From a virus (taxonomy: Duplodnaviria > Heunggongvirae > Uroviricota > Caudoviricetes): a stretch of 11,021 nucleotides of DNA. Each line of letters begins with the position of its first letter. Within the stretch, counting starts at the first letter, position 1. The notes under the pieces were generated by a model. The model searched no databases and was not told the DNA's origin. It worked only from the letters and a program-made list of their open reading frames with translations. Of this stretch, positions 7,152 to 10,222 are shown piece after piece. A program made the translations under genes and the position numbers. The stretch is taken from the IMG/VR virus record IMGVR_UViG_2648501338_000008; one strand, written 5' to 3'.

Positions 7152-7478
7152 TCATAACACCGTCGGACAACGCAAATCGTAAATCAGCACGGACACAGAA
7201 AACGGCAGCTCCCCCTGAACCAGGTCTTCCCGCTCAGCAAGATCCGGATTCCGGTACAGCATCCCGGTCAGTCGCATGGCAGCCCCCTTCATCCGGGTTA
7301 ATGCCTCGCCCGGGATCAGCTCACCGTCCTCACGAATCACTTTATCCCGGCTACCCTGAATGTAGGCCAGCAGCACGGCGGTAGCCTGACGAACCTTGTC
7401 CATCAGCATGTCATCATCCGCGTCATGGTCAACACGCAGATGTGCCTTGATCTCTTCCAGTGTCAGTAATGCCGTCAT
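7152..7478 (-). CDS. gp6-like head-tail connector protein, 108 aa
   Basis: N-terminus MTALLTLEEIKAHLRVDHDADDDML matches the gp6-like connector signature (TLEE-K-HLRID-DDDD). AGGAGG sits 8 nt upstream. The ATG at 7478..7476 overlaps the stop of the upstream 915-aa ORF (ATGA). Confidence 0.75.
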   Translation of the reverse strand: MTALLTLEEIKAHLRVDHDADDDMLMDKVRQATAVLLAYIQGSRDKVIREDGELIPGEALTRMKGAAMRLTGMLYRNPDLAEREDLVQGELPFSVSVLIYDLRCPTVL

Positions 7479-10222
7479 TTTCCGCCTCCTGCATCCCGTC
7501 CACGTTTGGCAGCCAGGGTCCAGCCTGATGAATGAGCTTCTCCGGGTTTATCACCGGTCATACTGTTGCAGTGCCACAGCGAGCCCCCCCACGTCACCGT
7601 ATCACCGGGGTGGTAGGTTTCACCGGCTCTGAACACACCGCGGTAGAGCATCACCGGCAGGGAAAATGTTTTTTCCGTACGCTGGCCACTGCTCTGCCGG
7701 ACCACCACAGTGAACGACCGTTCGCCGGTCATGCTGACGTCAATATCGGCCACCCCGTCAACCAGGCATTCCCATCCCCGCATCCCGTGCGTTTTTTCAT
7801 ACGCCCGCCAGAGTCCGCCCTGGTGTGTGGCATACGTGCCCCGGGGAAAGGATTTTTGATCGTCAATGGCGGGGATTATTTCCAGTGCCGTGGCATCACG
7901 CCCGTCCTGCGGAGCCGGCAGGGCTCTCACCGCATCCAGAACAGCCTTCTGCAGAACATCGGGATCATAGTCACGACCATCACGCGGAACAGGAATATGG
8001 CTTACCGCCTCTTTCACCATCTGTTCAAGCATCGGACGCACATCATCGGGGGTAATACTTTTGCCGTCCGCCGGTACCGGAATATTCGCGACCGCATCAT
8101 TCACCGCCTTCTGCAGTACTTCCGGATCGTAATCACGACCATCACGCGGAACAGGAATATGGCTTACCGCCTCTTTCACCATCTGCTCAAGCATCGGACG
8201 CACATCATCGGGGGTAATACTTTTGCCGTCCGCCGGTACCGGAATATTCGCAACCGCATCATTCACCGCCTGCTTCAGTACTTCCGGATCGTAATCACGA
8301 CCATCACGCGGAACAGGAATATGGCTTACCGCCTCCTTCACCATCTGTTCAAGCATCGGACGCACATCATCGGGGGTAATACTTTTGCCGTCCGCCGGTA
8401 CCGGAATATTCGCAACCGCATCATTCACCGCCTGCTGCAGTACATCCGGATCATAATCACGACCATCACGCGGAACAGGAATATGGCTTACCGCCTCCTT
8501 CACCATCTGTTCAAGCATCGGACGCACATCATCGGGGGTAATACTTTTGCCGTCCGCCGGTACCGGAATATTCGCAACCGCATCATTCACCGCCTGCTGC
8601 AGTACATCCGGATCATAATCACGACCATCACGCGGTACCGGAATGGCCCCCACAGCATCATCCACCATCGCCTGCAGAACCGGACGCACCTCATCCACCG
8701 TCACATGCTTCTGTAATACCGCCGACAGGGAAGTCAGTTTCTCTTCAAACGCTTGTGCCTGCGAGGCCATCTTCCCCTCAAATGTGCGCTGTAAATCCGC
8801 CAGCACCGTGGAGAATTCTTCGCCCAGTGCACGAATAATGGACAGTTCCCGTTCCGTCATTTTCGCAGTATCCCCCCTGAACATCGCTTTCACCGCATCA
8901 TGCTCTGTTTCACTGATTGCCTTATTACCGTCAGATGCGCCGTCAGGCAGCTGTGATGAAACTGTTTTCCCGGCAGACGCGAACGGATCCTCACGGGCAT
9001 CACGACGGGACAGCGCCTCCAGACTGTAGTTCTGCTGCTGAAGATACAGTGCATCACCGCCGGCAAGGGGCGGCAGGTTCTCACGTTTACGGGCCTCATT
9101 GGGCGTGAGAAGCGTATTTTTCACCGAATCACCCAGCGTTTTCATGCGACGCTCACTGTCCATTCTCAGCAGCGTGGTGACATCAAACTCCGTACTCTCG
9201 TTTTCCCCCGTTTCCAGCGCCTCATCCAGTAACAGCTCAATGGACTCAATCAGCGTCTGCAGACACTGGGAATAATACTGCTGCTCCAGCGCCTCCACGT
9301 TGTCACTGGAAGGCGGCTGGCCAACGCCAATCTTGTAGGCCGGGACACGGAACACCGAACAGACAATTTCAGCCGTCATCTTCAGTTGTTCCACCGTCTG
9401 CGCATCCACAGGTGAAAACGTCGTGGGGTTATATTTCGCCCCGTTGCTCAGAATGGCCGTTTTCCCCGCATTTTCGCCGGTATACCAGCTGTCCCAGTTG
9501 CTCTTCAGTTTTTTCGCATTTTCTTCCGTAATACTGCCGGGGATCTCAATCACCCCGGACGGCCTGCCGCCATTTCTGAAAAAAGACGTCGAATTTTCCT
9601 GAATATGATGCCCCTGCGTGGCCGCCAGCCCGGCGGCATACACCGGCGGCAATCCTATAAGCGGATGAAAAAAACAGTTAAACCGGTCGTGGATCACTTC
9701 CCGGGCAGGCACCGTCACCGCCTCCGTGATCCCGCAGTTCCGGTCCGGCGTGATGCGGTAGAACACCTCGCCGTCATCCGCCACCAGAGGTTCAACCCGG
9801 CTCCAGTCCAGAATACGCAGTTCTTTGATCTGCCCCCGGGCATTACGGATTTTCAGCACCACCGTATTGCCATGACGCAGTTTGGCGTTCAGCCACAGTT
9901 CAAAAAACTGGATGCGGTTCTGCTGGGCGTTGGGACGACGACAGAGGCGGGCAATATCCCCCCGGCGCGTTTCCCTGCGTATCCCATGCGCATCCGTCTG
10001 CATAAGACGCAGCCGCATTTTGGCGATATCCTGGGATATCAGCGAAATACAAGAAAACACCGCATGAAAGGAGAGGACACCTTCAGGATCGGCTTTCACG
10101 CCCTGCTGCCAGGCGCCGGAAAAAGGCTCAGCCACCGCCTGAAACAGGCTGGTCCAGCCCACCTCTCTTACATCACGTCCTGATTTCTGGTTTTTTCGGG
10201 TTCGCCGCAAAAGGTTCCACAT
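7475..10222 (-). CDS. Portal-domain protein with a long C-terminal extension, 915 aa: HK97-family portal-like core (about aa 1-400), about five tandem 54-aa repeats, and a C-terminal carbohydrate-binding-like domain
   Basis: Core has portal family motifs as I recall them: FFRNGGRPSGVIEIPGSITEENAKKLKSNWDSWYTGENAGKTAILSNGAKY and SPVDAQTVEQLKMTAEIVCSVFRVPAYKIG (compare FF-NGA-PSGvL ... sG-N-GK-avL ... DaQ-LE-rkf--eeIa--F-VP). ATG at 10222..10220 with GGAG about 8 nt upstream. No in-frame stop anywhere in the ORF. Size and C-terminal content are atypical for a portal. Confidence 0.6.
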   Translation of the reverse strand: MWNLLRRTRKNQKSGRDVREVGWTSLFQAVAEPFSGAWQQGVKADPEGVLSFHAVFSCISLISQDIAKMRLRLMQTDAHGIRRETRRGDIARLCRRPNAQQNRIQFFELWLNAKLRHGNTVVLKIRNARGQIKELRILDWSRVEPLVADDGEVFYRITPDRNCGITEAVTVPAREVIHDRFNCFFHPLIGLPPVYAAGLAATQGHHIQENSTSFFRNGGRPSGVIEIPGSITEENAKKLKSNWDSWYTGENAGKTAILSNGAKYNPTTFSPVDAQTVEQLKMTAEIVCSVFRVPAYKIGVGQPPSSDNVEALEQQYYSQCLQTLIESIELLLDEALETGENESTEFDVTTLLRMDSERRMKTLGDSVKNTLLTPNEARKRENLPPLAGGDALYLQQQNYSLEALSRRDAREDPFASAGKTVSSQLPDGASDGNKAISETEHDAVKAMFRGDTAKMTERELSIIRALGEEFSTVLADLQRTFEGKMASQAQAFEEKLTSLSAVLQKHVTVDEVRPVLQAMVDDAVGAIPVPRDGRDYDPDVLQQAVNDAVANIPVPADGKSITPDDVRPMLEQMVKEAVSHIPVPRDGRDYDPDVLQQAVNDAVANIPVPADGKSITPDDVRPMLEQMVKEAVSHIPVPRDGRDYDPEVLKQAVNDAVANIPVPADGKSITPDDVRPMLEQMVKEAVSHIPVPRDGRDYDPEVLQKAVNDAVANIPVPADGKSITPDDVRPMLEQMVKEAVSHIPVPRDGRDYDPDVLQKAVLDAVRALPAPQDGRDATALEIIPAIDDQKSFPRGTYATHQGGLWRAYEKTHGMRGWECLVDGVADIDVSMTGERSFTVVVRQSSGQRTEKTFSLPVMLYRGVFRAGETYHPGDTVTWGGSLWHCNSMTGDKPGEAHSSGWTLAAKRGRDAGGGK
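7890..8700. repeat. Direct tandem repeat array, 162-bp unit, about 4 near-identical copies plus degenerate flanking copies, in frame inside the 915-aa ORF
   Basis: The string tcacgaccatcacgcgg recurs at 7971, 8133, 8295, 8457 and 8619 (exact period 162). Copies starting at 8295 and 8457 appear identical; the others differ by a few substitutions. Encodes repeated VRPMLEQMVKEAVSHIPVPRDGRDYDPDVLQQAVNDAVANIPVPADGKSITPDD, itself two related 27-aa half-repeats. Confidence 0.9.

Follow-up and report, generated by a model that had tools for sequence, protein, structure and literature searches.

A fibre-like gene with a CBM5/12-like terminal domain between the portal and head-tail connector genes of HK97-type prophages

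Introduction

The IMG/VR virus record IMGVR_UViG_2648501338_000008 (Caudoviricetes) provides a stretch of 11,021 nucleotides (nt), the whole of which is referred to here as the window, and its list of open reading frames (ORFs) includes one of 915 amino acids (aa) on the minus strand at 7475-10222. The 5' part of this ORF encodes a portal protein, and its 3' end, the feature under study, encodes a segment that a preliminary description had likened to a carbohydrate-binding module (CBM) of the CBM5/12 type. This locus raises the question of whether a portal protein really ends in such a module and, if it does not, of what kind of protein the module belongs to.

Comparison with relatives indicates that aa 455-915 of the ORF represent a distinct gene, here called X, which normally comes after the portal gene. 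Gene X encodes a protein built like a fibre, whose tip is CBM5/12-like, and the reading favoured here, to which we give roughly even chances, is that of a trimeric accessory virion fibre with a predicted glycan-binding tip, whose place on the virion and ligand we infer. To our knowledge, and given the literature searched, which yielded nothing on the X protein, there is no earlier description of a fibre-like gene conserved in the slot between portal and connector, of its two-lobed terminal domain, or of its recurrent fusion to the portal; CBM-tipped, collagen-like phage fibres are themselves already a known kind.

The features on which the argument draws are as follows.

7475-10222, minus strand: in-frame portal-X fusion of 915 aa (ORF list; Phage_portal and TIGR01537 matches)
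8861-10222, minus strand: portal moiety, aa 1-454 (PF04860, TIGR01537, and comparison with relatives that have five Gs, or G5, at the junction)
8872-8877, minus strand: run of six Gs (G6), CCCCCC on the plus strand (alignment with LC567841; allele counts)
7478-8860, minus strand: gene X, aa 455-915, 461 aa, with its ATG at 8858-8860 (separate coding sequence in relatives; PHROG 1289 match)
8705-8860, minus strand: predicted amphipathic helix at the N-terminus of X, aa 455-506, resembling a coiled coil (helix predicted at 3-51 of X)
7898-8704, minus strand: predicted acidic stalk of X, aa 507-775 (composition, predicted helices, tandem repeat)
7748-7879, minus strand: predicted lobe 1, aa 782-825, a degenerate CBM5/12-like hairpin, ...SFPRGTYATHQGGLWRAYEKTHGMRGWEC... 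(hhalign against lobe 2; model strands 23-47)
7652-7747, minus strand: predicted beta-hairpin insert between the lobes, aa 826-857 (model strands 50-57, 62-69, and 74-80)
7493-7651, minus strand: predicted lobe 2, the CBM5/12-like module proper, aa 858-910 (Pfam match, fold comparison)
7152-7478, minus strand: gp6-like head-tail connector gene (Phage_connect_1, 7.8e-8)

A separate gene between portal and connector

The N-terminal part of the 915-aa ORF is recognized by curated models as the core domain of an HK97-family portal, with Pfam Phage_portal (PF04860) spanning aa 54-382 (E 2.5e-79) and TIGR01537 portal_HK97 spanning aa 45-388 (E 5.3e-104). At the other end, the connector gene and the stop of X overlap by 4 nt, and, as the connector adjoins X, the order portal, X, connector defines a conserved slot.

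This order was followed in a scan of one genome per bacterial species, which retained 80 loci with a relative of the C-terminal domain, 79 of them scorable. The portal was a separate upstream ORF in 69 loci, was fused in two, and was not visible in eight (mostly short contigs), while a gp6-like connector lay directly downstream of X in 64 of the 79; the commonest portal-X junctions were overlaps of 4, 1, or 8 nt. Where the portal can be seen, then, the C-terminal 461 aa are a separate coding sequence (CDS), outside the portal polypeptide, in 69 of 71 species loci. The preliminary description had assigned the module to a head-gene product and had asked which carriers its homologues are fused to; the assignment is true of the 915-aa ORF of the window, but it is misleading for the great majority of relatives, in which the module sits on a downstream gene of its own.

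Individual genomes present the same arrangement. Two CDSs with an ATGA overlap are found in LC567841, in BP-4795 (ORF58 and ORF59), and in Salmonella phage FSL SP-016, where the portal ends in ...AMIRGFLTK*, in the same frame as in the G5 relatives, and where there is no G run at the junction. In Rhizobium phage RHph_X2_26, the junction also has no G run, and the two genes are 4 nt apart. In a Caballeronia prophage, X is called as its own CDS, with the gp6-like connector next, and in a metagenome contig X comes after a portal-like CDS.

The family is large, given that an exhaustive search of representatives (clusters at 50% identity) returned 7,890 clusters at E <= 1e-3, of which 920 pass E <= 1e-30, and X is present in 23% of complete E. 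coli genomes, at up to eight copies per genome. Among the 149 best representatives, whose lengths have a median of 320 aa, 138 begin with Met, and all carry the domain at the C-terminal end. PHROG 1289, which carries the label "portal protein", is this stand-alone family and aligns to gene X from end to end, whereas no NCBIfam model covers X. PGAP flags the two-gene state as a "frameshifted" portal pseudogene (e.g., NZ_CP033605.1, locus L055, 1163-3261). The database annotation is thus inverted, with the stand-alone family named after a minority of fused ORFs, and the present analysis corrects the annotation of a large uncharacterised family widely mislabelled as "portal protein". The records of NCBI also label X "portal protein", and some Klebsiella fragments are labelled 'gp6-like head-tail connector'.

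The C-terminal domain

When the last 141 aa were compared with Pfam, CBM_5_12 (PF02839) was the only family matched (E 2e-5, 25.0 bits; 18.6 bits when the full 915-aa ORF was the query), and the match lies within lobe 2, at aa 865-887 (window 7562-7630), followed by a conserved KRGRD tail. Recognition at the level of the family is firmer, as all 14 aligned homologues match CBM_5_12, with a best E of 3.1e-7, and many homologues in the protein databases carry a precomputed PF02839 assignment. The peptide GETYHPGDTVTWGGSLWHCNSMTGDKPGEAHSSGWTLAA, on which the resemblance was originally proposed, corresponds to aa 867-905 (window 7508-7624).

When the PDB was searched by sequence, the domain and the family profile both found weak matches only (E 0.09-0.5), which are suggestive rather than decisive, and the fold comparison was undertaken for this reason. 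An AlphaFold2 model of the domain, built from the 14-homologue alignment, is all-beta, with a mean predicted local distance difference test (pLDDT) of 83.5, and contains a compact antiparallel-hairpin beta fold of about 45-60 aa that can be superposed on solved CBM5/12 modules. The local Foldseek alignments to the CBM5 of ChiB and to 7b5h_AE have a probability of 1.00, although no PDB match reached E <= 0.001, the best E-values being 0.03-0.3. Family-level profile and fold comparison together bear out the proposed likeness to a CBM5/12-type module.

A weaker second copy had been suggested just upstream, in TYATHQGGLWRAYEKTHGMRGW (aa 796-817; window 7772-7837). When the two halves of the domain were compared through hhalign, on the 149 representatives, the local alignment, ksYpRGTyA.H.GGLWrs...T.G against g..Y..GD.VTwgGSlWhc...T..K, was significant (P 4.9e-5) and the global mode was not. 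This makes the second copy plausible, but Pfam finds no match to lobe 1 alone, and the duplication is argued from hhalign only. Given this, the domain is described as a predicted unit of about 125 aa, in which two CBM5/12-like lobes flank a beta-hairpin insert.

Across the family, Trp and Tyr positions are strongly conserved (Y..GD.VTwgGSlWhc...T..KPg......WtL), and the beta domain with its KRGRD tail is mildly basic, with an isoelectric point (pI) of 8.0. Each lobe also has one cysteine, at aa 819 (GWEC) and aa 885 (LWHC) of the ORF, in the region of window 7748-7651. The 14 aligned sequences all keep both; of the 149 representatives, at least 80% retain the GWEC cysteine and 50-80% the WHC cysteine. 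The pair may make a disulfide between the lobes, or a metal site.

Coiled coil and stalk

The predicted secondary structure of X consists of a long N-terminal helix (aa 3-51), ten short helices, and the beta domain. The short helices are separated by linkers of 11-12 residues of the form IPVP(R/A)DG(R/K), and the stalk that they build (aa 507-775) is strongly acidic, with a pI of 4.4. It includes a tandem repeat of 162 base pairs (54 aa), present in 4.3 copies at window positions 7944-8644, and near-identical prophages hold from zero to four copies of this repeat, which results in X proteins of 245, 299, 353, 407, or 461 aa. The variable number of 54-aa repeats is a handy marker of strains, and is known to cause breaks in assemblies. 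Many of the X entries in the databases are fragments that end at the stalk repeat.

In other members of the family, the stalk is built differently. Collagen-like stalks, with at least five Gly-X-Y triplets, occur in 63 of the 149 representatives (42%), and Pfam Collagen is matched by two of the 14 aligned homologues. Other proline-rich stalk repeats, of 27 aa, are found in 58 of the 149; for example, the stalk of the metagenomic protein P0141 has about 25 of them. The Pfam matches of the stalk to TetR_C_35, FliG_N, and DUF4244 were discarded as artefacts driven by the repeats.

The N-terminal helices of the family share an amphipathic pattern, A..L......V......L..R...LE. The profile of the family N-terminus, compared with PDB and Pfam, retrieved nothing but coiled coils, among them many trimeric designs, with no significant match, and provided no clue to an attachment partner. 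The nearest viral structure models are phage collagen-repeat proteins, tail fibres, and proteins annotated as CBM5/12- or chitin-binding, and the PHROG tail-fibre families give weak matches to X. As far as structure prediction goes, the layout of X is that of a standard trimeric fibre, with a short anchor or coiled coil, a stalk of variable length, and a small terminal binding module.

The G run and the portal-X fusions

The alignment of the window with LC567841 has a single indel inside the ORF, at a G run in which the window has six Gs (8872-8877, within TTCAGGGGGGATACTGCGAAAATGACGG) and LC567841 has five. In the G5 frame, the portal ends in ...AMLRGILRK*, and its TGA overlaps the ATG of a 461-aa CDS that starts with MTERELSIIRALGEEF, at aa 455 of the ORF of the window. 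The fusion in the window is accordingly caused by one extra G in the homopolymer, and the conservation of the portal tail RG(I/F)L(R/T)K marks the G5 frame as the native one.

The counts of the two alleles, and the loci at which fusions were located, are the following.

IMG/VR contigs: G6 (fused) in 5, G5 (split) in 45
Complete E. coli genomes: G6 at 49 places in 45 genomes, G5 at 666 places in 421 genomes
G6 junction loci: L005-L009, L056, L062, and L063
Fusions outside E. coli: L059/L060, 6001-9714 (P0141); L087; L141

Fused loci make up about 3% of the species loci and about 7% of the typed E. coli places. Another G6 record, that of phi330, was not relied on, given that it has additional frameshifts and is a manual assembly of Sanger reads; in it, a second frameshift about 80 nt upstream parts the frames again.

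A G-rich element lies 11 nt before the ATG of X, reading AGGGGG in the window and AGAGGA in the Salmonella counterpart, and the G run is likely to be a Shine-Dalgarno-like element of X. If it serves as the ribosome-binding site of X, internal initiation could still supply free X from the fused allele.

The same tract might instead be a regulatory device, either through slipped-strand phase variation or through a -1 ribosomal slip, at G GGG G or at A AAA UGA in the overlap, that would give free X together with a minor portal-X fusion. The product of a -1 shift in the G5 allele would be identical to the G6 fusion protein, both alleles are found on closely related local haplotypes, and accessory domains added by frameshifting do occur in phage structural genes. 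On the other hand, the G run is missing from the Salmonella (AGAGGA) and Rhizobium junctions, the latter with a spacer, a run of five or six Gs is short for frequent slippage, and no canonical X XXY YYZ heptamer is present. Furthermore, six of the G6 alleles, with intact ORFs, differ from one another at 3-6 of 680 flanking positions and from the nearest G5 allele at 35-43, so that they form a diverged lineage of their own rather than scattered singletons. We regard a regulatory tract as highly improbable.

An accessory virion fibre and its rivals

In the favoured reading, X would trimerise and decorate the neck or head of the virion, a place suggested by the position of its gene between those of the portal and the connector; its tip would bind a surface glycan and so help reversible adsorption. 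The same virion carries a second accessory domain of the adhesion type, as the major tail tube protein (window 5226-5942, minus strand) has a C-terminal Ig-like domain (Ig_2 / I-set, aa 150-234). The related phage phi330 uses OmpC via a J-type fibre (PMC12502783). If the fibre reading is right, X would be a second host-contact device beside the OmpC-recognising J-type tail fibre, including in long-tailed Stx phages, and could affect adsorption, host range, and the spread of stx.

Several findings weigh against this interpretation, and some of them concern the module itself. The C-terminus of the window scores 1.2 bits below the gathering cut-off of PF02839 (26.2 bits), its alignment covers only positions 3-29 of the profile (27 of 44), and the Foldseek search of the PDB gave no match at the threshold stated above. 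The canonical exposed aromatic pair of chitin-binding CBM5/12 modules could not be shown in the domain, and the position aligned to the 'YW' of 2rts reads C-N-E-E in the family profile. The low score and partial coverage, together with the weak PDB values from both sequence and structure searches, would also be expected if the likeness came from a short aromatic or glycine-rich motif that matched by chance, an explanation that we hold to be extremely improbable in view of the match in every one of the 14 aligned homologues.

It is also conceivable that the CBM5/12-like fold is real and serves protein-protein contacts, as a knob for the trimerisation or registration of the stalk or as a site of attachment to the virion, and not as a sugar binder. 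Consistent with such a role, All3316/Cis13, which tops the sequence matches among solved chains without reaching significance, is a structural component of a baseplate (PMC8894136); the nearest viral models, on the other hand, include proteins annotated as chitin-binding. This reading appears doubtful.

The stalk and the available data on relatives add further reservations. The window's own X has no Gly-X-Y collagen repeats, and the model of full-length X is of low confidence outside the beta domain (pLDDT 60; about 40-60 in the stalk) and was used for secondary structure only. The paper on phi330 provides mass-spectrometry maps for podophages only, with no data on X (PMC12502783).

The fusions are a further difficulty, given that they are neither confined to the window nor of a single origin. 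The G6 alleles persist as a lineage whose ORFs are intact, and phages 2851 and YYZ-2008 have the portal-X fusion in their deposited genomes. P0141 is an independent in-frame fusion, found as an identical protein of 1,237 aa on four metagenomic contigs from separate samples, and the Pantoea and Brevundimonas genomes have further independent fusions. In known portals, the C-terminus sits inside the capsid, so in-frame fusions would place X inside as well, and yet they persist. The fusions are either tolerated dead weight or a sign that X normally acts at the portal, and their repeated occurrence, a Rosetta-stone pattern, hints at the latter. Natural portal-X fusions also provide a testable prediction on the location of X.

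This evidence leads to the main rival, in which X is a portal-associated protein inside the capsid, with a gene order and position like those of SPP1 gp7. The portal fusion would then be functional as an architecture, and the ligand of the beta domain would be DNA or the portal crown or, once ejection has taken place, peptidoglycan. In addition to the independent fusions, its position directly after the portal, with overlaps typical of translational coupling, and the mildly basic C-terminal domain with its conserved KRGRD tail are in accord with this role. Conversely, the fusions are rare, at the shares given above, and exposed fibres are where collagen-like triple helices and length-variable stalks are typically seen. 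The acidic stalk would be unfavourable beside packed DNA, X has no similarity to the MuF/gp7 families, and the frameshifted tape measure gene of the window's prophage, described below, is consistent with decay. An internal role is, on balance, unlikely.

In a third arrangement, X would be a hitherto unrecognised class of portal-vertex protein, namely a trimeric fibre that binds glycans and either docks on the portal or threads from it. The twelve portal tails would carry four X trimers, and a heritable or translational switch at the G5/G6 tract would set whether X is free or tethered to the portal. Docking at the portal vertex would explain both the translational coupling to the portal and the repeated, stable C-terminal fusions, and, if true, it would provide a new structural element for HK97-type virions in thousands of proteobacterial prophages. 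The proposal as a whole is improbable. A role as scaffolding protein was set aside, as a protease-capsid fusion already supplies one and the collagen and CBM features do not fit it. The accessory fibre remains the preferred reading and, whatever its function, X is an extra conserved gene defined in the portal-connector slot of HK97-type prophages, those of long-tailed Stx phages among them.

Neighbouring genes and state of the prophage

The gene set of the window is that of an HK97/lambda-type siphovirus structural module, comprising the capsid C-terminus, the gp6-like connector, a head-completion protein, a gp10-like protein, the gp17 tail completion protein, the tail tube protein with its Ig-like domain, a tail assembly chaperone, and the tape measure protein. 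At the DNA level, the window is 94-98% identical to long-tailed Stx / PPompW-type prophages of enterohaemorrhagic E. coli, with Pankowvirus, YYZ-2008, 2851, and BP-4795 among them. The complete E. coli assemblies contain no exact copy of the window, the highest identity being 98.5%.

The tape measure gene (window 1242-4485) is split into an ORF of 797 aa (TMP_3 and Phage_HK97_TLTM) and one of 307 aa (Tape_meas_lam_C). The split is due to a single additional base, at about 2098, which none of the ten related loci spanning this position has. The element is probably defective, or the assembly contains indel errors, and either case weakens the argument that the window's own fusion is functional. 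At window position 4502, upstream of the tape measure gene, there is also a one-base intergenic difference from LC567841 beside a run of eight Ts, which is a second homopolymer-associated indel in the window.

Comparison with known systems

In its gene position directly after the portal, X resembles the minor head proteins of the SPP1 gp7 and MuF type, which are encoded just downstream of the portal, with SPP1 gp7 bound to it; for X, a portal association is suggested by the occasional fusions. Unlike these proteins, X is fibrous, with a CBM-like beta domain, and Pfam, NCBIfam, and PHROGs give no Phage_Mu_F or gp7 match for it.

A functional parallel may be found in accessory virion fibres and adhesion domains such as T4 fibritin (wac, encoded beside the neck genes), the phi29 head fibre gp8.5, the collagen-like gp12 of SPP1, and the Ig-like domains of tail tubes. 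Accessory proteins of this kind are trimeric, coiled-coil or collagen-like, non-essential, and encoded in the head-neck module, and they are thought to aid weak, reversible binding to the cell surface. X has no sequence or fold similarity to any of these four.

The terminal domain was compared with the CBM5/12 modules of the Serratia ChiB C-terminal domain, the ChBD of S. griseus ChiC (2d49), the ChBD of P. furiosus (2rts), and the CBD of Erwinia EGZ (1aiw). In contrast with these, the module of X comes without a glycoside hydrolase and is duplicated; the resulting domain, of about 125 aa, contains a beta-hairpin insert, and its first lobe is degenerate. Many CBM5 modules have an aromatic pair after the second strand, where X has C-N-x-x-T.

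Among solved chains, the best sequence match (E 0.09, not significant) is All3316/Cis13 (PDB 7b5h), of the thylakoid-anchored contractile injection system of Anabaena, in which ...HGIWKPGQTYQKGDVVYYNHSLWEMQSE is aligned to LYRGVFRAGETYHPGDTVTWGGSLWHCNSM. The two share the same small fold, and Cis13 is part of a phage-tail-like particle; it is a baseplate protein of 154 aa, whose C-terminal transmembrane helix anchors the particle to the thylakoids (PMC8894136). It differs from X in having neither a stalk nor a link to a portal.

Similar to X in overall design are collagen-like phage proteins that end in CBM5/12 or chitin-binding type-3 domains, such as the BFVD entries A0A6J5LGH8, A0A6J7WKU6, and A0A6J5NV95, A0A1J0GW38 of Streptomyces phage BRock, and the Pa193 gp47 tail fibre (9b45). 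Several of them are annotated as tail or tail-fibre proteins, whereas the N-terminus of X is a coiled coil only, with no recognisable tail-attachment domain, and X is instead encoded between the portal and the head-tail connector and is sometimes fused to the former.

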